Part shown: piece by piece, positions 1,276 through 24,229 of the stretch
Position numbering within the stretch: position 1 is the first letter of the stretch
Layout: the number at the start of each line of letters is the position of its first letter
NCBI GenBank assembly: GCA_038208905.1
Contig: JBBQYG010000038.1
Coordinates: 1 to 28,682, forward strand
Length of the DNA stretch: 28,682 bases
Direction of reading: 5' to 3'
Source: Candidatus Sumerlaeia bacterium
GTDB lineage: Bacteria > Sumerlaeota > Sumerlaeia > SLMS01
The notes under the pieces: generated by a model
What the model was told of the DNA's origin: nothing
What the model saw: only the letters and a program-made list of their open reading frames with translations
The model's database searches: none
Position numbers and translations under genes: made by a program

Positions 1276-3039
1276 CTAGGCCTTCAGCGCTTCGAGGCCG
1301 AGGCGGTGGGTCCAGTCGCCGAACGCTTCGTCCGGCTGGCGCTCCGCGCGCCAGCGCCCGACCAGGCGTGCGATCTCCGGCGGCACATCCTCGAAGAGCA
1401 TGCGCTCCTTGAAGAGCTTGTTGAGTCGCGTCCCCTCGAAGTCTCCGCCGAGGTAGAGGTTGTACTTGCCGGGGGCGCAGCCGATGTGGCCGATCTCCGC
1501 GCTCTCTGGCCGCGAGCAGGAGTTGGGGCAGCCGCTCATGCGGATGGAGATGCGCTCGTGGCCGAGGCCGAGTTCCTCCAGCTTGTCGATGAAGACGGGC
1601 ATGGCGCGTTCCGATTCCGCCAGCGCGAGCCCGCAGGTGGGAAGCGCGACGCAGGCTATCTCGTGCCGGCGGATCTCGCTCAGCTTGCCGTTCACGTTCA
1701 CGGCCAGGCCGGTGTCGGCGAGCATTGCACTGATTTCCGCCTGGCACTTTTCGGAGACATTGGCGAGGAGGATGTTCTGCTGGCCGGTAAGGCGGACCTC
1801 CGGGCGGAACTTCTCCACGATACGGCGCAGGATCGTCCGCGCGGGGCGCCCCGGCGCGTCGATAATGCGGCCGTTTTCGATGAAGATGCCGACGTACATC
1901 AACCCAGGCTGACGCTGGGCGTGCCAGCCAAGATGATCGTCGTATTTCCAGGCGGAGTCGTCGATGGGGCGCGCGGGAGCCAGCTCGATCCCCATGCGGC
2001 GGGACATCTCCTCGCGATACCACGTTTCCCCGACTGCATCCAGCAGGTACTTGAGGCGGGCCTGCTTGCGGTCGGTGCGGTTTCCATAGTCGCGCTGCAC
2101 GGTGATCACCGCATCCACTGCGGCCAGAATATCGTCGCGGTGGACGTAGGCGATGTTGGTGGCGAGGCGCGGATAGGTGGCCTTGTTGCTGTGGGAATGG
2201 CCGAGCCCGCCGCCCGCGACGATATTGTAGCCGGTGACCTCGCCGTCCTTGGTGAGCGCGATCAGTCCAAGGTCCTGTGTAAAGACATCGATGCAGTTGT
2301 CGCCGGGGGTGGTGACGCCGATCTTGAACTTTCGCGGCATATACGTCTCGCCGTAAAGATCCTCATTCGGATCGCGGAGGTTGATGATCGGGACACCCTC
2401 CTGATTCCGCTCTCCGTCTATAAAGATATCATAGAAGGCGGTGGTGCGCGGGAGGGTGCGGTCGGAAATCTGCCGCGACAGCTCGATGAACACGTCGCGC
2501 CCGGCCCACTCGGGGCGCGGGTCCAGGTCGATCACCGGGCAGCTCATCACGTTTCGGACAACGTCTCCGCAGGCGCCATAGGTGGTGAGCAGGCGCGTGT
2601 TGAGCTCGCGGGAGAGGCCCTGCAGCTTCTCCTTCCCGATGCCGTGGAACTGGATCGTCTGGCGCGTCGTCAGGCGGATGGAGCCCTTGGAAAACTTCGT
2701 CGCGCAGTCGTCCAGGATCAGGTACTGGTCGGCGGTGAGGCGTCCGCCGGGCACCTTGGTGCGGACCATGAAGCTGAAGTCCTTGTCCAGCCCGGCGCGC
2801 TTGCGCTCGATGCGCGTGTCGCGGTCGTCCTGCTGGTACATGCCGAAGTGCTTCATAAGCTGGTAGGACTCTTCCGAGACCTCCGGCAGGTTGGGATCGG
2901 TCATCTCCTTGAAGACATCGCCGCGCAGGCCGTGGCTCACGGTCTTGAGATGCTCGACCTTGTTTTTCTTCTCGAGGGGCGCGTCGATGCCGAGCGTTCC
3001 GCGAAGCTCCTCGGGGTCTTGAAAGGTCTTCTCTGACAT
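1276..3039 (-). CDS. cysI: Sulfite reductase hemoprotein (siroheme-[4Fe-4S]; CysI/SirA type)
   Basis: 'KHFGMYQQDDRD', 'RLTTRQTIQFHG', 'GACGDVVRNV', 'YMPRKFKIG', 'RKQARLKY', 'CVALPTCGLA' and 'SGCPNSC'. ATG 3039 is preferred over 3060 because AGGAG lies at 3055-3051. Confidence 0.95.
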   Translation of the reverse strand: MSEKTFQDPEELRGTLGIDAPLEKKNKVEHLKTVSHGLRGDVFKEMTDPNLPEVSEESYQLMKHFGMYQQDDRDTRIERKRAGLDKDFSFMVRTKVPGGRLTADQYLILDDCATKFSKGSIRLTTRQTIQFHGIGKEKLQGLSRELNTRLLTTYGACGDVVRNVMSCPVIDLDPRPEWAGRDVFIELSRQISDRTLPRTTAFYDIFIDGERNQEGVPIINLRDPNEDLYGETYMPRKFKIGVTTPGDNCIDVFTQDLGLIALTKDGEVTGYNIVAGGGLGHSHSNKATYPRLATNIAYVHRDDILAAVDAVITVQRDYGNRTDRKQARLKYLLDAVGETWYREEMSRRMGIELAPARPIDDSAWKYDDHLGWHAQRQPGLMYVGIFIENGRIIDAPGRPARTILRRIVEKFRPEVRLTGQQNILLANVSEKCQAEISAMLADTGLAVNVNGKLSEIRRHEIACVALPTCGLALAESERAMPVFIDKLEELGLGHERISIRMSGCPNSCSRPESAEIGHIGCAPGKYNLYLGGDFEGTRLNKLFKERMLFEDVPPEIARLVGRWRAERQPDEAFGDWTHRLGLEALKA

Positions 3040-3044
3040 CGTTG

Positions 3045-4985
3045 TCACAGCTCCTTGCACCGCGTGTCGGCGGTGCCCATGTTGGGTATATACGCTCTCA
3101 TTTCGAGTTCGGCGACGACCATCTCGGCGCAGTCTTTCAGGCTGCTAAGACCCGTGTCCACGACGAGTTCCGGCTTGGCGGGCGGCTCGTAGGGCGAGCC
3201 GATTCCCGTGAAATCCTTGATCTGCCCCGCGCGGGCCTTGCGGTACAGCCCCTTGGGATCGCGCTGCTCGCACACGGCGAGGTCGGCCTTGACGTGAACC
3301 TCCACGAAGGTCTCTGGCTGGAGCGCGCGCGCCATGTCGCGCTCGTGGCGGAAGGGGCTGATGAACGCCGCCAGGGTCACGATCCCCGCGTCGCTGAACA
3401 GGCGCGCCACTTCGGCGATGCGGCGGATGTTTTCCTTCCGGTCCTCCTCGCCAAAGCCCAGCCCCTTGCTGAGGCCCATGCGGATGTTGTCCCCGTCGAG
3501 CACATAGGTCCTGACGCCGCGCTCGTGGAGGATCGCCGACACCTCGTTGGCGAGGGTGGACTTGCCCGATCCGCTGAGGCCCGTGAACCAGAGCGTGACG
3601 CCGCGATGGCGGTTCTGGTTCTCGCGCATTTCGCGCGTCACTTTCTGCGAGTGCCACACGATGTTGGGCTCGGGGGCTGGGGGGTCCTTGGGGGCTTCGC
3701 GAGCGAGCTTGATCCCCGATTGCATCTCGCGATAGGCTCGGCTTAGCACCTCGCCCACCTCGGGGCGCATGATGCGCTCGTCGGGGGCAACGCCGCTGCG
3801 CAGCAACTCGCGCAGCTTGCGGTCGGGGATCGTGACGGTCTTGAGGCCCCTGTCGGCGTGGTCGGCGATGAGCGCGACGGCGCCCAGTTCCTCGAAGTAC
3901 GCGGCGGCGCCGACGAAGATCGGCTCGATCAGGAGCTTGCCGGCAAGGCTCTCGAACTTTGCCCGCGCCTCCGTGCCGGAGGGAAAGCTACTCCCCGAAT
4001 CATAGAGCGGATCCGCGGTGCCGTGCCCGATAATGATGTGGGTGAAGCCCATGTTCTGGCGATAGATCGCGTGCATCACGGCCTCGCGCGGGCCGCCGTG
4101 AAACGTGCGCATTTCCAGCGCATAGAGGTCGAACACATCGTTTATTGTATATCCAGCCTGCCGCCAAAGGCTCTCCTCGGCGTCGCCCTTGCCGAGGAGG
4201 CGCATCTCCTTCAGCACCGCGTGGGAGGCGATGCGGACCTCCGCGGGAACATCGTCCCAGCGGGTCTCGCTGGCGAGCGGCGTCAGCACCACGCCGGCCC
4301 ACGTTCCGGCGTGCATCAGGCGTTCCGCCGCCACGACCATCGCGTACTCGTGATCGCGGCGCAGCGGCCGCCGCGCGGGCATCGCAATGGCGGCGGACCA
4401 ACCCTTGACCTTCAGCAGCGCGCGGACGCGGTCGGTCGAGTGCGTGTAGCGCGCGATGGCCTCGTTGGGCCGAAAATCCGAGGGGAACACGTGGATCTTG
4501 CCGCCCGCGAGCCAGCCGCGGCGGTCCTCCAGCGTTTGGCGCGCCCCCGGATGCTCGGGCGTTTCGCTGCCGTGAATCACGAGACAGTAGCGCGCCTTGT
4601 CCCACGCATAGACATCTTCGACTTCGAGCAGGGCGACTTCCTCGCCGCGCTCCGAAACCATGATCGCGGGCTGGCCCGGCTTGACCGCGGCCTTCTCCTC
4701 CTCGGTGAGGGGAAACGCGATCGGCACGCCCCAGGCCCACGAGTCGCCGTTGGCAATGATGATTTCCTCGTCCAGCACGCGATCCCACACATCGCGCGTC
4801 ATCGGACCAACCAGCGGCGTCAGCAATCCATCGCCGAATCGCCGCACGGTAAGGAGGTCGATGCCACTGACGACGATGCGCGGCGCGTCGGCATGGGCTC
4901 GGCTCAGTTCCACCGCGCGCTCTGCGCCAACAAGGCGCACGGCCAGTTCCTTCGCTCCGCCGTGGGGCTGCATGGGGACGCTCAT
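3045..4985 (-). CDS. cysC: Fusion of a Sat-type ATP-sulfurylase-like domain (active-site motifs degenerate) and an adenylylsulfate kinase
   Basis: N-terminal Sat scaffold: 'PHGG..L', 'LTPLVGPM', 'HPGA', 'GPREAVMHAIYRQNMGFTH', 'IMRPEV'. C-terminal APS kinase: 'WFTGLSGSGKST', 'LDGDNIR', 'ENIRRIAEVA', 'RDPKGLY', 'FTGIGSPYEPP'. ATGA overlap with the cobA-hemD stop. Confidence 0.93.
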   Translation of the reverse strand: MSVPMQPHGGAKELAVRLVGAERAVELSRAHADAPRIVVSGIDLLTVRRFGDGLLTPLVGPMTRDVWDRVLDEEIIIANGDSWAWGVPIAFPLTEEEKAAVKPGQPAIMVSERGEEVALLEVEDVYAWDKARYCLVIHGSETPEHPGARQTLEDRRGWLAGGKIHVFPSDFRPNEAIARYTHSTDRVRALLKVKGWSAAIAMPARRPLRRDHEYAMVVAAERLMHAGTWAGVVLTPLASETRWDDVPAEVRIASHAVLKEMRLLGKGDAEESLWRQAGYTINDVFDLYALEMRTFHGGPREAVMHAIYRQNMGFTHIIIGHGTADPLYDSGSSFPSGTEARAKFESLAGKLLIEPIFVGAAAYFEELGAVALIADHADRGLKTVTIPDRKLRELLRSGVAPDERIMRPEVGEVLSRAYREMQSGIKLAREAPKDPPAPEPNIVWHSQKVTREMRENQNRHRGVTLWFTGLSGSGKSTLANEVSAILHERGVRTYVLDGDNIRMGLSKGLGFGEEDRKENIRRIAEVARLFSDAGIVTLAAFISPFRHERDMARALQPETFVEVHVKADLAVCEQRDPKGLYRKARAGQIKDFTGIGSPYEPPAKPELVVDTGLSSLKDCAEMVVAELEMRAYIPNMGTADTRCKEL

Positions 4986-6466
4986 GCGATGCCCTCCTGG
5001 GCGGCGGGCTCGGGATGCGCCGTCAAGTCCTCGACCGCGGCGAAGCCAAGCCGCGACGCGGCGGCGGAGGCCAGCTCGCCAATGGCGATGGCGCGCAGCG
5101 ACGGCAGAGGCGCCTCCGCGTAGATCGCGGCGAAGTCCTCCACCGCGCGGGGGCTGGCGAAGAATACCGCGTCAACAAAGGCGAAATCCACTGGGGCGGG
5201 CTGGCCGGCTTCCGCGCGATAGACTGCGATGCACGCAACATCCGTCGCGCCCGCGCGGACGAGTTCCCCCGCCATGCCGCCCCGATAGTGGGCCGCGCAG
5301 GGAAAGGCGACCCGCTGGCCGGCAAAGACTTCGCCAAGCCCGCCGCTGACGAGGTGATCGGGGAGGAGCGCCAACGCCTCCAGTGCCTCGACCGTCTCCT
5401 CGCCCGCCGCCGCAATGCGCGCGGAAATACTGCGCGCGTCATGGCCTGACTCACGCAGCAGGGCGAAGAACTCCCGCGCGGAATGCGGGTTGTTGAAGAG
5501 CAGCCAGTCCGCCCCCCGCGCATCCGCGACAGCGATTCGGGCCTGGGCGCGGGCCTCGCCTTCGAGCGGATGGAACGCCGTCACCGGCCTCCAAAGCATC
5601 GAGGCGTGGGGAAATCGCGCGGCCAGCAGCGGCGACACGCGCGAGGAGGTGACCATGATCGTCTGCGCGTGGCGCGGGCCTCCCGCCCGAGAATCACGGC
5701 CCAGCGCCGCCGTTTCCCCCACCACGAGAACCGCGGGTGGCTTGATCCCCGCCGCTTTCACGGCGGCCTGAATTCCAGAGAGCGGCGCCCTCGCCACCTG
5801 CTGTCTATACGTGGTGCCGCTGGCGACAAGCGCGGCGGGCGTCCCGGGCGCGACGCCGCGGGCGAGGAGCCGTGCCACAATGTCGCCCAGCGCCTCCACA
5901 CCCATCAGGAAGATGCGCGTGTCCGACTCGCCGGGCTCGGGAAGAACGCCGTCCTTGCCGCGCCCGGTCCACACGGCGAAGCCCCGCGCCAGCTCGCGAT
6001 GCGTCACCGGAATCCCGGCGGCGGCGGGAACCGCGAGCGCGGAGCTGATGCCGGGGACCACGCGGCACTCGACGCCGCGCGCGGCGAGGAAGTCGCGCTC
6101 CTCGCTGCCGCGTGCAAACACGAAGGGGTCGCCGCCCTTTAGTCGCACGACGCGGTTTCCTGCGCGGGCCTCGGTCAGGAGGGTTTCGTTAATCTGGTCC
6201 TGCGACGCGGGACCATCGCCGGGGCGCTTGCCCACGTCGATGCGGCGCGTGGCCGGGGGGAGCGCCTGGAGCAACTCCTCGCACCCGAGCCGGTCGTGTA
6301 CCACCACGTCGGCCTCCGCCAGAAGCTGCCACCCGGCCAGCGTCAGCAGTCCCGGATCGCCGGGTCCCGCGCCCACGAGCCAGACCTCGCCCGGACCGAA
6401 GCCGCGACCGAGGGGCGGGGGTTGCGGGTGGCGCCGGGGGCTGATGTTTTGTAGCTTGGTTGGCAA
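4982..6466 (-). CDS. cobA: Uroporphyrinogen-III C-methyltransferase fused to a uroporphyrinogen-III synthase (HemD)-like domain
   Basis: 'VWLVGAGPGDPGLLT', 'ADVVVHDRL', 'VRLKGGDPFVFARGSEE', 'VPGISSA' and 'AGIPVTHR'. The C-terminal half has HemD-like patterns ('WLLFNNPHSA', 'AAAGEET', 'VFFASPRAV', 'IAIGE'). The start is uncertain (TTG 6466 or 6517). Confidence 0.88.
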   Translation of the reverse strand: MPTKLQNISPRRHPQPPPLGRGFGPGEVWLVGAGPGDPGLLTLAGWQLLAEADVVVHDRLGCEELLQALPPATRRIDVGKRPGDGPASQDQINETLLTEARAGNRVVRLKGGDPFVFARGSEERDFLAARGVECRVVPGISSALAVPAAAGIPVTHRELARGFAVWTGRGKDGVLPEPGESDTRIFLMGVEALGDIVARLLARGVAPGTPAALVASGTTYRQQVARAPLSGIQAAVKAAGIKPPAVLVVGETAALGRDSRAGGPRHAQTIMVTSSRVSPLLAARFPHASMLWRPVTAFHPLEGEARAQARIAVADARGADWLLFNNPHSAREFFALLRESGHDARSISARIAAAGEETVEALEALALLPDHLVSGGLGEVFAGQRVAFPCAAHYRGGMAGELVRAGATDVACIAVYRAEAGQPAPVDFAFVDAVFFASPRAVEDFAAIYAEAPLPSLRAIAIGELASAAASRLGFAAVEDLTAHPEPAAQEGIA

Positions 6467-6599
6467 CGGAAGGGATGGCCGGGAGCGTGGGGGATTCGGG
6501 GCGCGGCGAAGGGGCAACAGCTTGCCCGCGAGGCCCCCGCCCCGCGCAAGTGCAACGATGAATCAGGGCGACCGGAGGGCGTCAATAGAAATACCGATT

Positions 6600-6623
6600 A
6601 TTCCGACCGGATTAGTCCAGATT
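6600..6623. promoter_or_regulatory. Candidate Rrf2 (CymR/IscR-like) operator upstream of the cobA-cysC-cysI-rrf2 unit
   Basis: ATTCCGAC-CGGATTA-GTCCAGATT, an imperfect dyad with GAC-N7-GTC in the AT-rich patch at about 6583-6623. It lies just upstream of a minus-strand TTGACG (6585-6580). Confidence 0.45.
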
Positions 6624-7163
6624 GGCCAGACCCCCCTCCGCCTCCCAATCCACGCCTTCGATGGCGGCGGTGATGGCCTGGCGCAGGCGCTTGGCGCGCC
6701 CGGGGGACTGGCCAAAGGTGGAGATGGAAATAAGCACGCCCTCCTCGGGGTGGCGGATCACGGCGGTGGTAAAGAAATCGGAACCCTCGGGATCGTCGGC
6801 CACATTGACCGGGACGCCCGCGGCGTTGGCGGCCCGGGCAACCGCGCGATTTGCCTCCCGGTGGTTGGTGGCGGCAAAGATGAGGTTGAAAATTCCGACC
6901 TCCGGCGCGCCGTCGGGAAAACTCCCGGGGACGTGCCCGATGGCACCGCTTGCGTGGAGCTGGCGAAGCTCGTCGGTGATCTCGGGACTAAGCACCGTCA
7001 CGCCGAATCCCCCTTCCAGTAGTCCGCGGACCTTGCGCGTGGCGACGGCGCCTCCGCCCACGACGAGGGCACTCCGCTCTGGCCCCACCAGGACCACCGG
7101 ATAGAATGCTCCCGATTCGATCCGCTTCTGGCGCCGATCGTGCAACTCGTCCTCGTGCGTCAT
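6612..7163 (-). CDS. sirC: Precorrin-2 dehydrogenase / siroheme synthase N-terminal-type protein (SirC/Met8p-like)
   Basis: 'FYPVVL...ALVVGGGAVATRKVRGLL', 'LIFAATN....N..VA', 'VNVADDP...DF' and 'ISISTFGQSP..AKRLR'. The real start is ATG 7163; the longer ORF-track extension to 7916 is antisense to the chelatase gene. Confidence 0.9.
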   Translation of the reverse strand: MTHEDELHDRRQKRIESGAFYPVVLVGPERSALVVGGGAVATRKVRGLLEGGFGVTVLSPEITDELRQLHASGAIGHVPGSFPDGAPEVGIFNLIFAATNHREANRAVARAANAAGVPVNVADDPEGSDFFTTAVIRHPEEGVLISISTFGQSPGRAKRLRQAITAAIEGVDWEAEGGLANLD

Positions 7164-7205: not shown

Positions 7206-8261
7206 ATGAAACCACAGCCCCTCCCCGGCGGCAAGCCCCCCCGCATCGTGATCGTGGCCCACGGTTCGCGCTCGCGGGAGTGGGTCGCCGCCCTGCGCGC
7301 GTGGCATCGCGGCGTGGTGGAGCAAATGGGCGACGCGGGCGGCGCCGTGGAGCTGGCGTTCCTGGAAATCGCGGAGCCGTTGCTGGAGGACCGCCTCGGC
7401 GATCTCGCGAAGCAGGGCGGGCCGGTGGTCGTCGTGCCGTTCTTCCTCTCTCGCAGCGGCCACGCCGGCGACGATGTGCCGCGCATCGCCGAGGAGAAGC
7501 TGGGGGGGCACGTGCCGTGGCGGATTGTCTCGCCACAGGGATGGGAGACGGTTCTTGGCCGCAACGCCGCGAGGCGCCTCCTGGCGGCGGGCGCGCGCAC
7601 GGGCGACCCGGTGATCGTGTCGGGCTATGGCGCCTCTCATCACGACGAACTGTGGCGCGAGTTGATCCGCGAAGTCCAAGACGCGGCGGGGCCGTTTGCC
7701 GGAGGCGCGCCGTGGCTGTGGGCGCCGAGCGGGCATTTTCTGGCGGACTACGGGGCGCCGCTGCGCACTTGTCTCGCGTCGGTGGAGAGAAGCGCGCGCC
7801 GGATTTCCACACGCCACGCCACGATGCGCCGCGGGAGCGGCGCCACATTCGTCGCCCCGGACTTCAGTCCGGGGTTCACTGGCCCCGGTGGATTCCGACG
7901 CCCGCAGGGATCGCACAGTCGCGCGCCTGTTGGACCCCTCCCAGGGTCCGGTTCCCTATCCTCTCGCGTCCCCGGACTGAAGTCCGGGGCTACGAATGTG
8001 GCGTCCCTGCCGGGACGCACGCGACTGGCGTCGCCGAGAGGTCGCGGCAAACCCCGCGCGGCGATACTTCCACTTTACCTTTCGGTCTCCACCTATCAGA
8101 AGGAACTTATTCCGGCGGCGATCTCGGAGTTTCCCGGGCTCCGAATCAGCTTTCAACCCGACGCCATCCTGCCCGACGCTGAACTGGAGTCGTGGATGGC
8201 TCAGCTTCTGCTGAGGGAGTTGTTGCCGGAACCGCGCCGCATTGGCCAAGGAGCCCCATGA
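7206..8261 (+). CDS. CbiX/SirB-family (sirohydrochlorin) chelatase with an in-frame REP-derived insertion
   Basis: 'IVIVAHGSR', 'AFLEIAEP' and 'VVVPFFLSRSGH..DDVP' form the first CbiX unit. The second unit runs 'VIVSGYG...APLRTCL' [insert] 'AILPLYLS....Q..LIP'. ATG 7206; the stop overlaps the cysH start (ATGA). Confidence 0.82.
   Translation: MKPQPLPGGKPPRIVIVAHGSRSREWVAALRAWHRGVVEQMGDAGGAVELAFLEIAEPLLEDRLGDLAKQGGPVVVVPFFLSRSGHAGDDVPRIAEEKLGGHVPWRIVSPQGWETVLGRNAARRLLAAGARTGDPVIVSGYGASHHDELWRELIREVQDAAGPFAGGAPWLWAPSGHFLADYGAPLRTCLASVERSARRISTRHATMRRGSGATFVAPDFSPGFTGPGGFRRPQGSHSRAPVGPLPGSGSLSSRVPGLKSGATNVASLPGRTRLASPRGRGKPRAAILPLYLSVSTYQKELIPAAISEFPGLRISFQPDAILPDAELESWMAQLLLRELLPEPRRIGQGAP
7826..8018. 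repeat. REP doublet / REPIN-like palindromic element (GTAG family B) inside the chelatase CDS
   Basis: 34-bp inverted repeats at 7841-7874 and 7970-8003 (33/34 match), each holding a perfect CCCCGGACT-NN-AGTCCGGGG hairpin preceded by GTCG or GTAG. Accessory hairpins at 7826-7843, 7932-7949 and 8001-8018. Confidence 0.9.
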
Positions 8262-9085
8262 ACCTCGATTCGTCCCGCGGCAGCCAGACCACCAGCCGCG
8301 TTGGCGTGGCGGTGTTCAAGGGCACGGGCTCGCGCCTGGAAAGTCTCTCCGCCGACGAGATCATCCACTGGACGCTGGATACTTTCCCCATTGGGAAAAT
8401 CGCTGTGCTCTCCGCCTTTCAGAAGGCCGGATGCGTCCTCTGCCACAGCATCGCGCGCCTCGGTCTTCAGTCGCGCGTGGACGTTCTGTTCGTGGACACG
8501 GGGGTGAACTTTCCCGAGACGATCGAGACGGTGGATCGCTATCGCACTGAGTATGGCCTCAACGTGATCGCGCTGCATCCCGAGCGCACAATGGCCCGGC
8601 AGACGGCGGAGGAGGGCGTGCTCTATCTCTCCAAGGAGGGGCAGGAACGCTGCTGCGAATTGCGCAAGAAGGATCCGTTGAAGCAGATCCGCGGGCGCTA
8701 TGAGGCGCTGCTGTCGAGCCTCCACCGCAGTGATGGCGGCCGCCGCGCCAAGACCCCCGTTCTCGCGCCCGACATCGAACTGAATCTCGTCCGCATCCAC
8801 CCGCTGATCAGCATCACCGAAGAGGAAATCGAGGCCTATATCCGCCAGCACGGCGTGATCGTGAATCCGCTCCACGACCAAGGCTACCCGACGGTTAGCT
8901 GCGCGCGATGCACCACGCCGGTCCTCCCTGGTGAGGACGAACGCGCGGGCCGCTGGCGCCACTTGGAGCACGCCTCTCAATACTGTAACATCAATCCGAC
9001 CGACCGGGCGCGAGGGGGCGACAACTCCGACTTCGTGGAACTCAGCTACGAGACGGCGCTGAAGATCGAGAACTACGACATCTGA
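8258..9085 (+). CDS. cysH: APS/PAPS reductase (CysH family) with Fe-S-type CC...CxxC ligands
   Basis: 'FVDTGVNFPET', 'RCCELRKKDPL', 'NPLHDQGYPTVSCARCT' and 'GEDERAGRW'. AAGGAG RBS just before ATG 8258. Confidence 0.92.
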   Translation: MNLDSSRGSQTTSRVGVAVFKGTGSRLESLSADEIIHWTLDTFPIGKIAVLSAFQKAGCVLCHSIARLGLQSRVDVLFVDTGVNFPETIETVDRYRTEYGLNVIALHPERTMARQTAEEGVLYLSKEGQERCCELRKKDPLKQIRGRYEALLSSLHRSDGGRRAKTPVLAPDIELNLVRIHPLISITEEEIEAYIRQHGVIVNPLHDQGYPTVSCARCTTPVLPGEDERAGRWRHLEHASQYCNINPTDRARGGDNSDFVELSYETALKIENYDI

Positions 9086-9157
9086 CGCGCGGTTTCCCTC
9101 GACACGCCCCCACGCCCAACCGAAGTTGGCCTTGTGCTTGTCGAGTTAGGCATACCA

Positions 9158-10105
9158 ATGAAAGCCGGTATCAATCCCACCTTGTTCCTCCCCCCGTTTG
9201 TCCGGTCCTTCGCCGCAACTTTGCTCGCCGTTGCATTGGTCCTCGCCCCCGGTTTTGCGACCGCCGAGGAAGCCCCGGCGCCGGAAAGGCTGGTCATCGC
9301 CTTTCAGAAACAGAAAGATCCCCGCAAGATTCAGGAAACCGCCGACTCGCTGGCGGCGATCCTTACAAAGGATATCGGCATCCCGGTGGAGGTCTATGTT
9401 CCGGCGACCTATACCGCCAGCGTTCAGGCTCTGGCCAGCGGCAAGGCGCACTTCGCCTACATGAGCGCGATTCCGTATCTGCTGGCGCGGCAGGAGGCGC
9501 CGGTTGAGATCGCGCTCGCCGAAGTGCGTGGCAATCGGACCGACTATGATTCAGTCTTCGTAGTGAGGAAGGATTCCCCCTATCAGACGCTGGCCGATCT
9601 AAAGGGCGCGCGGATGATGTTCACGTCGGCCACCAGCACGTCGGGCTATGTGATGGCCTACTCGCGCTTGGTGGACGAGAAGCTGCTGGAGAAGCGCGCG
9701 GCGCCGACCACGTTCTTTAGCGAGGCGAATTTCGCCGGCGGTTACGACCGCGCGCTGTTGGCGGTGCATCGCGGCCAGGCCGACGTTTGCGCGGTGAGCT
9801 ACTACACCGTCGAGGGGGAGAAGGCCGATGTGTATTCGACGCCGCAGATGCGCGAGGAATTGCGCGTCCTGACGCGGACGCCCGGTGTGCCCACGCACCT
9901 GATCTGCCAGCGCAAGGACCTTCCGATATCCGTCCGCGAAGCCTTCAAGGCCTCGATCCTGCGCATCGCGAAGGAGCAGCCCGCGCTGCTTTCGGATGTT
10001 TACGGCGCCGCGACGTTCAAGGAAGTGGACGAGAAGGAACACCTGAAGGGCGCCGAGGCGGCGCTCGAAAACACGGGCCTCGGATTGGCGGGCCTCGTCG
10101 AGTGA
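9158..10105 (+). CDS. phnD: PhnD/PtxB-like (phosphate/phosphite/phosphonate family) ABC substrate-binding protein
   Basis: Signal-peptide-like N-terminus, then 'PATYTASVQAL', 'YDSVFVVRKDSP..TLADLKG', 'SATSTSGY' and 'GGYDRALLAV..GQADV'. Start 9158 or 9134. The substrate is not determined. Confidence 0.85.
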   Translation: MKAGINPTLFLPPFVRSFAATLLAVALVLAPGFATAEEAPAPERLVIAFQKQKDPRKIQETADSLAAILTKDIGIPVEVYVPATYTASVQALASGKAHFAYMSAIPYLLARQEAPVEIALAEVRGNRTDYDSVFVVRKDSPYQTLADLKGARMMFTSATSTSGYVMAYSRLVDEKLLEKRAAPTTFFSEANFAGGYDRALLAVHRGQADVCAVSYYTVEGEKADVYSTPQMREELRVLTRTPGVPTHLICQRKDLPISVREAFKASILRIAKEQPALLSDVYGAATFKEVDEKEHLKGAEAALENTGLGLAGLVE

Positions 10106-22556: not shown

Positions 22557-23837
22557 CTAGTCAGTGAGTTCCCGCAACGCCTCGCGCAGCCCCGCCAGAG
22601 CCCGGGCGCGGTGGCTGATGCGATTCTTGACCTCGTCGCCAAGCTCCGCCAGGTGCGCGCCGTCGAATCCGTCGGGAACGAAAATCGGATCGTAGCCAAA
22701 GCCCGCCGCGCCTCGCGGGCCATGGGCGATGTGGCCCTCGCAGGTGCCGGAGGCGTGGAATTCACGCCCATCGGTTGATCGTAGGACAACGGTGCAGGCA
22801 AAGCGCGCCGTGCGCTTTTCGTCGGGCACGCCATCGAGCTCCGCCAACATGCGTGCGTTGCGCTCCGCCGCGGTGGGGGCATAGCGGCTGCTGTGGATTC
22901 CCGGTCGCCCGTCAAGCGCGTCCACCTCGAGGCCGCTGTCGTCGGCGAGAGTCCACGCCCCGGTGCGCTCGCCCCAGGCGCGTGCCTTGATCTGCGCGTT
23001 TGCAATATACGTGGAGCCATTTTCGTCCGGCTCCGGCGCGCCGGGAAACAGATCAGTCCCCTGTATATACAGCGGAAGGTCGCCGAGAATCGCCGATATC
23101 TCTCCAAGCTTGTGCGCGTTCCCTGTGGCGACGAAAAGCGGCGCTACCGGCCGCAGATCCGGCTCCAGCTCCGGATAGCTTCCCGGACCGCGCAGCACAA
23201 CCACCCGGCGACCGACCACCCTCAGCCGGTCGCGTGAAAACAAATCCACCGCGAGCGGCAGCGCGCGGTGCTCCTCGGCCAGAATCCGCGCCGAAAGATC
23301 AGCCTCCGTGTCGGTCGGATATGCGGGCACGGCGCGCTGGGCGATGATCGGGCCCTCGTCCATGCCCAGCGTCACGAAGTGCGCGGTGCAGCCCGCCACC
23401 TTCACGCCGTAGGCATGGGCCTGCGACTGTGCGTGAATGCCAGCGAACGCGGGGAGCAGCGACGGATGAATGTTGATCATTCGACCCGCGAAAGCGCCGA
23501 CAAGCACCGGTGTCAGCAAACGCATATACCCGGCGAGGATCAGGAAGTCGATGCGACGGGCCTCCAGCTCGCGGATGATCGCCGCCTCGTGGGCCTCGCG
23601 ATCCTTGCCATAGGATCGATGGTGCACGCATAGGCCGGGAATGCCCTCGCGCTGCGCGATCTCCAGCGCGCCTGCCCCCGGAAGGTTAGAGAGCACCAGC
23701 GCGAACTCCACGTTGGGCAACCGGCCCGCCTTCGACTCCGCGAGCAGCGCCAACAAGTTGGATCCACGCCCGCTGGCGAGCACCGCGGCGCGCAACGGCC
23801 TGGCCGGCGGATTCGGCGGCAGGATTAAACCGCTCAT
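22557..23837 (-). CDS. purN: Fusion: phosphoribosylglycinamide formyltransferase (PurN) + RdgB/HAM1 non-canonical purine NTP pyrophosphatase
   Basis: PurN: 'LASGRGSNL', 'LAGYMRLL', 'NIHPSLLP', 'GCTAHFV...MDEGPII'. RdgB: 'ATGNAHKLGEI', 'ANAQIKA', 'ADDSGL.VDALDGRPGIHS.RY', 'GFGYDPIF', 'KNRISHR'. One uninterrupted frame from ATG 23837. Confidence 0.93.
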   Translation of the reverse strand: MSGLILPPNPPARPLRAAVLASGRGSNLLALLAESKAGRLPNVEFALVLSNLPGAGALEIAQREGIPGLCVHHRSYGKDREAHEAAIIRELEARRIDFLILAGYMRLLTPVLVGAFAGRMINIHPSLLPAFAGIHAQSQAHAYGVKVAGCTAHFVTLGMDEGPIIAQRAVPAYPTDTEADLSARILAEEHRALPLAVDLFSRDRLRVVGRRVVVLRGPGSYPELEPDLRPVAPLFVATGNAHKLGEISAILGDLPLYIQGTDLFPGAPEPDENGSTYIANAQIKARAWGERTGAWTLADDSGLEVDALDGRPGIHSSRYAPTAAERNARMLAELDGVPDEKRTARFACTVVLRSTDGREFHASGTCEGHIAHGPRGAAGFGYDPIFVPDGFDGAHLAELGDEVKNRISHRARALAGLREALRELTD

Positions 23838-24229
23838 GGAAGCGCCTGGTTGGCGAACGACAACCGGATCACGCCGCATACCAGCAGGTCGCCGCGCCGG
23901 ATCGCGCTGGCCTCGGCAAATCGCGCGAGCGGCCCATCGGCGGCCTGAACCTGCACCACACCCCGCCACGGCGCGCCGCGGCCAAGGAGCGCCTCCTCCA
24001 GTCCGCCCGGTACCTTGTCCCGATTGCCGAATCCCAACAGCGAGAACGACAGCCGGTTCACCAGCGCCTCCGCCCGTTCGCCAAACAACTCCTCAGCGGC
24101 GGCGTTCAGATACAGCGAATTGGCAAGCCGATCCGTCAGTATCAGCGGCGAGGCATCGAACAGCGCGGCCATATCGGAGGCAAGTTGCAGGTCGGCGGGC
24201 TGGGGCCAGAGCGAGGCGGGAAGTTCCAA
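23834..24229 (-). CDS. Stand-alone PAS-domain protein
   Basis: 'ALFDASPLILTD.....LYLNAAAEELFG....ALVNR', 'WRGVV' and terminal beta strands. TTG start; the stop overlaps the purN start (ATGA). Confidence 0.72.
   Translation of the reverse strand: MELPASLWPQPADLQLASDMAALFDASPLILTDRLANSLYLNAAAEELFGERAEALVNRLSFSLLGFGNRDKVPGGLEEALLGRGAPWRGVVQVQAADGPLARFAEASAIRRGDLLVCGVIRLSFANQALP

Follow-up and report, generated by a model that had tools for sequence, protein, structure and literature searches.

The QxRN and HxxH motifs of ATP sulfurylase (Sat) serve the binding of substrate and phosphate. In fungal Sat the kinase-like half of the protein is dead and allosteric, which makes it the mirror image of the proteins considered here, in which an adenosine 5'-phosphosulfate (APS) kinase follows a dead sulfurylase-like domain. 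In Thiobacillus denitrificans the APS kinase is built in this way (PDB 3CR8; Gay, Segel & Fisher 2009), a dead Sat-like domain with an active-type kinase, and that of Entamoeba histolytica likewise places a non-functional sulfurylase-like domain ahead of the kinase, according to two reports (bioRxiv 10.64898/2026.04.02.716029, PMC6715247). For T. denitrificans the preprint mentions a proposed stabilisation of the hexamer by the dead domain; for E. histolytica, an enhancement of kinase activity by this domain is reported from mutagenesis (bioRxiv 10.64898/2026.04.02.716029). A search of the full-text literature (main texts without supplements) for dead sulfurylase-like domains on APS kinases yielded only this Entamoeba and Thiobacillus work. 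We describe here a protein of this known kind that has arisen independently, encoded at positions 3045-4985 of the minus strand of a 28,682-nucleotide (nt) stretch of DNA from a Candidatus Sumerlaeia bacterium (contig JBBQYG010000038.1, here called the window). The original prediction, made from the letters of the window alone, had pointed to the T. denitrificans precedent, to which E. histolytica can be added. The reading that we favour, with a probability of about 0.6, is that the gene descends from a Sat-CysC fusion, the common sulfate-activating enzyme of the order, that CysDN took over sulfate activation, and that relaxed selection leaves the Sat half to decay, its reading frame being kept since the kinase is translated through it.

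The open reading frame (ORF) begins with an ATG, remains open over 646 codons and encodes in a single polypeptide a PUA-like domain, a degenerate ATP-sulfurylase-like domain (SLD) without catalytic residues, a linker and an intact APS kinase. The PUA_2-like N-terminal domain covers amino acids (aa) 6-167 (4485-4970, minus strand, as for all features of this ORF; Pfam 92.3 bits), the ATP-sulfurylase-like catalytic domain aa 180-416 (3738-4448; PF01747 at 135.8 bits for a cut-off of 24.3), the interdomain linker aa 425-447 (3645-3713; predicted local distance difference test, pLDDT, below 50) and the APS kinase domain aa 461-610 (3156-3605; PF01583 at 224.4 bits). Both the PF01747 match and the structural superposition of the predicted model support homology of the SLD to the ATP-sulfurylase fold. 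The AlphaFold model has a mean pLDDT of 87.9, a confident fold that is weak evidence in itself because the model was built from an alignment of canonical homologues, and within the folded domains confidence is low only at about aa 321-340, the region of the degenerate GR(K/D)H loop. In Foldseek comparisons the modelled Sat region superposes on 4maf, 7fh3 and 2qjf with template-modelling (TM) scores of 0.90-0.92 normalised to the target, and the model also superposes on the two-domain chains 1i2d, 2gks and 3cr8.

All five Sat active-site motifs that the original prediction had reported as changed were found to be so, and alignment confirmed each of them. The sequence MPARRPLRRDHE stands for the clade's FQTRNPLHRAHE, which holds QxRN and HxxH, at aa 202-213 (4347-4382; F202M, Q203P, T204A, N206R, H209R and A211D); PLASETRWDD stands for PLVGETK(G/S)DD at aa 236-245 (4251-4280; G239S and K242R), TFHGGP for MFYGGP at aa 294-299 (4089-4106; M294T and Y296H), GHGTA for GRKHA at aa 320-324 (4014-4028; R321H, K322G and H323T) and IPDR for (V/I)(A/S)G(R/S/T) at aa 386-389 (3819-3830; G388D, in a column that is Gly in 119 of 119 homologues). 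Two of the reference motifs had to be amended: TFHGGP had been read against MxYAGP and IPDR against ISGT, and while M294T, Y296H and G388D are real departures, GGP in place of AGP is normal in the clade, whose form of the last motif is (V/I)(A/S)G(R/S/T) and not ISGT. In a HMMER alignment with the Aquifex (2GKS) and Penicillium chrysogenum (1I2D) proteins, the altered motifs sit opposite FQTRNPMHRxHE, GLTKPGD, GPREA and GRDHA(S/G)PG. The 119 non-self homologues comprise 22 Sat-CysC fusions (49-54% identity) and 97 stand-alone Sats (41-48%). Every one of them keeps FQTRN..HRAHE, G..K.DD and GR(K/R)HADA, and the window protein alone deviates; residues Q203, T204, N206, H209, G239, K242, R321 and H323, each present in 119 of 119, are all replaced. 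The QxRN/HxxH signature of a catalytic Sat is therefore missing (Q203P, N206R and H209R all fall in 119/119 columns), as are its GR(D/K)HA loop and G.TK..D motif.

The protein also misses the curated Sat cut-offs (TIGR00339, 191.8 < 322.95; NF003166, 193.9 < 387) and that of the bifunctional model (NF004040, 313.8 < 669), and its 138.6 bits against PF01747 are the lowest full-length score in the order, the others ranging from 168.6 to 198.8. As far as motifs can tell, the Sat-like domain very probably no longer makes APS. The scaffold was correctly described as free of frameshifts, since the 646-codon frame is open and the PUA and Sat domains contain no lineage-specific indels. An assembly or sequencing error was considered as the origin of the altered motifs and ruled out, as 36 missense changes at invariant columns are found without any frameshift.

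The kinase half was said to have all its motifs intact, a claim that both alignment and curated-model scores bear out. GLSGSGKST, LDGDNIR, FISPF, RDPKGLYRKARAG and FTGI are all retained in the alignment, so that the P-loop, the LDGD(N) motif with its catalytic Asp and the lid Lys region agree with those of canonical kinases (motif roles as given in PMC4373884), and the domain passes TIGR00455 (258.5 > 138.7) and NF003013 (277 > 163). Only 7 of the 84 kinase columns that are invariant in the order are changed, all conservatively (0-3 in the orthologues). The original view of a non-catalytic Sat-like half beside an intact kinase agrees with this pattern of lost and kept active-site residues. In the window's genome PF01583 has two matches only, the target ORF and a tail on CysN described below, and the same profile search found no stand-alone CysC. 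Judged by its motifs, the target kinase is the genome's only canonical APS kinase, and its activity has presumably been retained. Consumers of 3'-phosphoadenosine 5'-phosphosulfate (PAPS) of the Sulfotransfer_1 and Sulfotransfer_3 families (PF00685, PF13469) were not found in the genome, which leaves the cysH-family gene of the window as the sole candidate; the reason for a need of the kinase hinges on which of the two, APS or PAPS, is the substrate of the reductase.

To place the motif loss in its lineage, the gene was compared with its orthologues in the order, which is represented by 25 genomes including that of the window. Among the 24 others, an orthologue is present in 13, full-length in 12 of them and divided between two contigs in the remaining one, and canonical motifs are found in 13 of 13. 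The Sat catalytic domain of the window protein is 49-55% identical to those of the orthologues, which are 68-93% identical among themselves, and the kinase domain 64-75% identical to theirs, the corresponding range among them being 67-86%. In a maximum-likelihood tree of the N-terminal 425 residues, the window protein groups with 12 canonical orthologues (support 100/99) on a terminal branch of 1.12 changes per site, as compared to 0.05-0.46 for the 12; in the kinase tree its terminal branch is 0.40 for a median of 0.21. No intermediate was recovered from a search of 5.8 billion clusters, a search of 1.84 billion representatives or a metagenome scan, which yielded only a 100% identical copy; the metagenome scan gave one such locus and no match between 100% and about 50% identity. 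The 90%-identity cluster contains the window protein, an identical call of 642 aa and a 76-aa fragment. The motif loss is confined to a single lineage within a canonical clade. None of the orthologues shares the substitutions, and on the terms that the original prediction itself had set, close orthologues with canonical motifs point to recent decay rather than to a repurposed domain.

The same comparison bears on origin. The Sat-like domain alone, searched against all PDB sequences at E <= 10, matches 15 catalytic sulfurylases and leaves 3CR8 and the 500-aa kinase chain 23vk unmatched. No sign of common descent with the dead domain of T. denitrificans or E. histolytica was found by these means, and the independent origin first proposed is upheld by the 100/99 nesting among canonical orthologues and by the lack of a 3CR8 match. 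Degenerate Sat-like domains do occur elsewhere: in an alignment of 80 representatives of at least 340 aa, eight show replacements at 4 or more of 8 key residues. One of the eight is a kinase-first fusion, and four are possibly mis-framed translations. A survey by regular expressions, with 39 of 80 apparent misses, was too crude and was given up in favour of this alignment.

A second route of sulfate activation is encoded in the same genome (93.9% complete, 0.84% contamination, 301 contigs). The single PF01747 match of this genome is the target gene, and another contig, C104, encodes CysD (519.4 bits, cut-off 396.6) and CysN (639.6 bits). Among the 25 genomes of the order, 13 have Sat-CysC without CysD, six have CysD above the cut-off without Sat, five have neither and one has both; this one is the window's genome, the one in which the Sat catalytic residues are lost. 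Across the phylum CysD occurs in 8 of 75 genomes, and the single one outside the order is also without Sat. All six CysDN-type genomes of the order have a separate, high-scoring canonical CysC, and in two of them (G020 and G024) the stand-alone CysC lies directly upstream of cysD. Contig C104 is typical of the genome, with a guanine-plus-cytosine (GC) content of 0.640 for a mean of 0.645 and a tetranucleotide distance at the 46th percentile. A further arrangement was seen in genome G021, where locus L083 (G021:C68:16622-20077) holds an open frame some 840 aa long. Two stretches of this frame resemble APS kinases, the one canonical (229.8 bits), the other weak (50.2 bits); with a sub-threshold CysD-like gene nearby, the locus forms a third sulfate-activation architecture in the order.

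The CysN encoded on C104 carries an APS-kinase-like tail in the same frame (C104:5790-7577, within locus L103:5496-7652). The fusion passes the model for bifunctional CysN/CysC (NF004035, 945.9 > 715) and the tail passes TIGR00455 (177.2 > 138.7), yet the catalytic Asp of LDGD is absent: the tail has LDGS for LDGD, FVAPS for FISPY, QGMYNRAD for KGLYKKAR and FPGV for FTGI. The position of the second Asp of LDGD is Ser here and Gln, Ala or Glu in the four other genomes where the tail was seen. According to PMC4373884 this residue (Asp480 of Mycobacterium tuberculosis CysC) is the likely catalytic base and is essential in the mouse enzyme. The tail groups with its counterparts in two same-family genomes (94/90 and 94/83). 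Its motifs and its co-occurrence with a separate CysC suggest that the tail is probably a kinase-dead domain liable to be annotated as active. The genome would accordingly encode two bifunctional-looking proteins with one dead half each, CysN with its kinase-like tail and the dead Sat with its live kinase.

The position of the gene is conserved in the family, where the slot between cobA/hemD and cysI is found in three states. It is occupied by Sat-CysC in seven family members. In the CysDN-type genome G007 of the same family, cobA/hemD is followed by CysC alone and then by cysI, and the cobA/hemD stop is immediately succeeded by a GAAGGAG and the TTG start of the CysC gene; in G003, also CysDN-type and of this family, CysC precedes cysI and no Sat domain is present. 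The order's stand-alone CysCs fall in between fused kinase domains in the kinase tree. These arrangements can be read as a series at one slot, from the active fusion through the dead-Sat fusion, with the window's genome in the middle, to the kinase alone, an order of events that the present-day states suggest.

Selection on the Sat-like domain was assessed at invariant columns, i.e. those unchanged in 12 orthologues of the order, with a leave-one-out count for each orthologue (118-125 Sat columns). The window protein has changed 36 of 118 invariant columns of the Sat domain (31%), as compared to 0-7 in each orthologue, and 8 of 47 in the PUA domain, mostly conservatively (orthologues 0-10). 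The radicality of the changes was measured as their mean BLOSUM62 score and compared with that of simulated random single-nucleotide missense changes. The Sat changes average -0.36 for -0.63 +/- 0.26 in the simulations (P = 0.16) and are as radical as random ones; the seven kinase changes average +1.43 (P = 0.0006). Clustering of the changed Sat columns did not exceed chance (26 vs 23.9 +/- 3.0 permuted, P = 0.30). Release of the active site with retention of the fold had been considered as well; it predicted a concentration of changed columns and was rejected when none was seen. By these statistics the whole catalytic domain, beyond the pocket, looks relaxed, a term that refers here to substitution statistics and not to the ratio of nonsynonymous to synonymous rates (dN/dS), as synonymous sites would be saturated at about 55% amino acid identity. 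A repurposed domain under purifying selection, as originally suggested, is at odds with these data: the orthologues are canonical, the changes are random-like and unclustered, and in two CysDN-type family members without Sat the kinase still lies directly upstream of cysI.

From the sequences themselves, the distribution among genomes, synteny and the substitution statistics, we infer that Sat activity has been lost and kinase activity retained, that the CysN tail is inactive, and in which order these events took place. In the reading that we favour, CysDN, a GTP-driven ATP sulfurylase, would make the APS and thereby render the Sat half of the fusion redundant, and this half would then gather missense changes, including those of the QxRN, HxxH, GxxK and GR(K/D)H residues. 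The kinase would be translated from a ribosome-binding site and ATG ahead of the dead domain, so that a stop or frameshift there would abolish the kinase. In agreement with this, an AGGAGG lies 7-12 nt upstream of the target ATG, which overlaps the cobA/hemD stop (ATGA), and before ATG1 only, no Shine-Dalgarno sequence preceding the in-frame Met406 or Met421. Because the only canonical kinase lies downstream in frame, stops and frameshifts would be purged and 440 codons could stay open without a function of their own; the N-terminus is probably still under some selection to fold. The next stage would be that of the CysDN-type relatives G007 and G003, in which the Sat part is gone and CysC stands alone upstream of cysI.

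Several observations weigh against this account. As many as 82 of the 118 invariant Sat columns are still intact, no lineage-specific indel has entered the PUA or Sat domains (the sole one is a 4-residue insertion at aa 429-432, in the linker), the changes of the PUA domain are mildly conservative (P = 0.03), and the model folds confidently, with the reservation made above. Retained columns, lack of indels and predicted fold fit a continuing selection for the fold, which would also be expected if the kinase depended on the dead domain, be it for activation or for a scaffold of its dimer or hexamer. The predicted superposition on solved Sats and on the two-domain chains is compatible with such a role, and in both studied precedents the dead domain has one, proposed for T. 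denitrificans and reported for E. histolytica in the preprint (bioRxiv 10.64898/2026.04.02.716029). We consider a scaffold the foremost of the alternatives, though a doubtful one: the kinase alone upstream of cysI in two CysDN-type relatives of the same family argues against an inherent need for the domain, the changes at invariant columns are random-like in radicality and spread across the catalytic domain, and the intact frame is accounted for by the downstream kinase of the same ORF. The residual constraint fits either a short time since relaxation together with selection against a misfolding N-terminus, or a scaffold role. Also unfavourable to decay after replacement by CysDN are the lack of any relative closer than about 55% identity in the collections searched, the moderate support (88/76) with which the window kinase pairs with the G007 CysC (71% identity), and the location of the Sat-like gene and CysDN on different contigs of an assembly in 301 pieces, the window contig (C38) ranking at the 96th percentile when contigs are compared by how far their tetranucleotide make-up departs from the genome mean. 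Moreover, should the cysH product be APS-dependent, PAPS would not be needed for assimilation and the reason to keep the kinase would be unclear.

Fragmentation and the deviating composition of the window contig raise the question of whether binning has produced the co-occurrence with CysDN, C104 being foreign, and the somewhat accelerated kinase (branch length and changed columns both above those of the orthologues) that of whether the whole gene is a dying pseudogene with neither half working. These two possibilities together are the least probable of those considered. The ordinary composition of C104 and the grouping of its CysN tail with those of two same-family genomes argue against an artefact, as do the low estimated contamination and the fact that, without CysDN, sulfate activation would be missing from an organism equipped with sulfite and (P)APS reductases; a dying gene does not agree with seven conservative changes out of seven in the kinase, with catalytic motifs all intact in what is the sole canonical kinase of a genome that keeps cysI and cysH. 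Remodelling of the Sat-like pocket for a new ligand or reaction, for instance as an allosteric sensor of APS or PAPS or for another nucleotidyl transfer, appears hardly more probable. The first motif has become more basic (ARRPLRRDHE, through N206R and H209R), R205, H212, D244/D245 and the GGPREA...H...R.N.G block are retained, and degenerate Sat-like domains recur in the eight representatives mentioned above; however, the substitutions are shared by nothing in the cluster, representative and metagenome collections, their pattern is statistically random, and within the folded domains model confidence is low only around the GR(K/D)H loop. It is finally conceivable, if unlikely, that the dead halves, the CysN tail or the Sat-like domain or both, are docking modules that bring the live kinase to CysDN and channel APS to phosphorylation; this would also account for the kinase-dead CysN tail found alongside a separate CysC in the CysDN-type relatives. 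Decay behind a translated kinase, following replacement by CysDN, remains the reading to which we give most weight.

The gene was placed in an assimilatory operon by the original prediction, and its neighbours agree with that assignment. On the minus strand the order from 5' to 3' is a sirC/cysG-N-like precorrin-2 dehydrogenase gene (6612-7163, with a likely start Met at 7163 in a frame open up to 7916), the cobA/hemD fusion encoding uroporphyrinogen-III C-methyltransferase and synthase (4982-6517, start codon uncertain), the target ORF, and cysI for the sulfite reductase haemoprotein (1276-3039, likely ATG at 3039). The cysI ATG lies 5 nt past the kinase stop, and its AAGGAG is within the end of the kinase ORF. 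GC content at third codon positions is 0.87 in both the Sat-like domain and cysI and 0.89 in the kinase, and codon-position GC does not set the domains apart. The window contig as a whole has a GC content of 0.666, for a genome mean of 0.645 (standard deviation 0.013). The joining of cobA and hemD in a single ORF is kept upstream of Sat-CysC in family members. The divergent cysH-family (P)APS reductase gene (8258-9085, plus strand, likely Met at 8258 in a frame open from 8192) encodes CC...CxxC cysteine pairs, which we take to be typical of iron-sulfur, APS-dependent reductases. Its product passes NF002537 (177 > 154) and fails the APS_reductase subfamily model (160.2 < 235.3); its C-terminal motif is YCNIN, unlike the usual ECGLH-like form. 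A transporter adjoins the sulfur operon, with a phosphonate-type periplasmic binding protein at 9134-10105 (plus strand) followed by a 640-aa open frame, up to 11709 on the same strand, in which ATP-binding cassette ATPase and permease domains occur together. Further away, a 470-aa frame at 22557-23969 (minus strand) combines Formyl_trans_N (aa 60-241) and Ham1/ITPase (aa 278-463), and may represent a fusion or else a stop-to-stop frame that runs across two genes.

The consequences concern annotation and the way pseudoenzymes are interpreted. Source databases name the relatives of the window protein 'sulfate adenylyltransferase', and automatic annotation would call both it and the CysN fusion bifunctional where a reading of the motifs suggests one activity each, so that details of the metabolism reconstructed for this little-studied phylum would come out wrong. 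The slot series illustrates the loss of a domain after its functional replacement, and an essential domain translated behind a pseudoenzyme domain is enough to keep the latter open over hundreds of codons. An intact frame is not the same as a retained function, a caution that applies to other claims of pseudoenzymes.

Among described systems, domain order and fold are shared by the Aquifex aeolicus Sat/APS kinase (2GKS) and the canonical Sat-CysC fusions of the order, the latter in the same slot between cobA/hemD and cysI. These keep FQTRNP.HR.HE, G.TK..D and GR(D/K)HA, and the window protein is without all three. The T. denitrificans kinase, which has the same architecture, takes the fifth Foldseek rank for the whole model (3cr8, E = 3.5e-33), but its phmmer match covers the kinase only (aa 439-633); moreover, the loss in the window protein is confined to one lineage within a canonical clade, whereas no close canonical kin was found reported for T. 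denitrificans. The E. histolytica enzyme differs in being eukaryotic, mitosomal and dimeric, and its dead domain is not matched by that of the window protein at E <= 10. The best match to the Sat-like half is the P. chrysogenum Sat (1I2D/1M8P; E = 5.4e-28, structure rank 1), also a two-domain Sat/kinase protein with one non-catalytic half; its closer counterpart in this genome is the kinase-like CysN tail rather than the window protein. What the present locus adds to these systems is its setting: two activation routes that exclude each other, a single operon slot whose three states form a series, and a CysN whose dead kinase tail complements the dead Sat.

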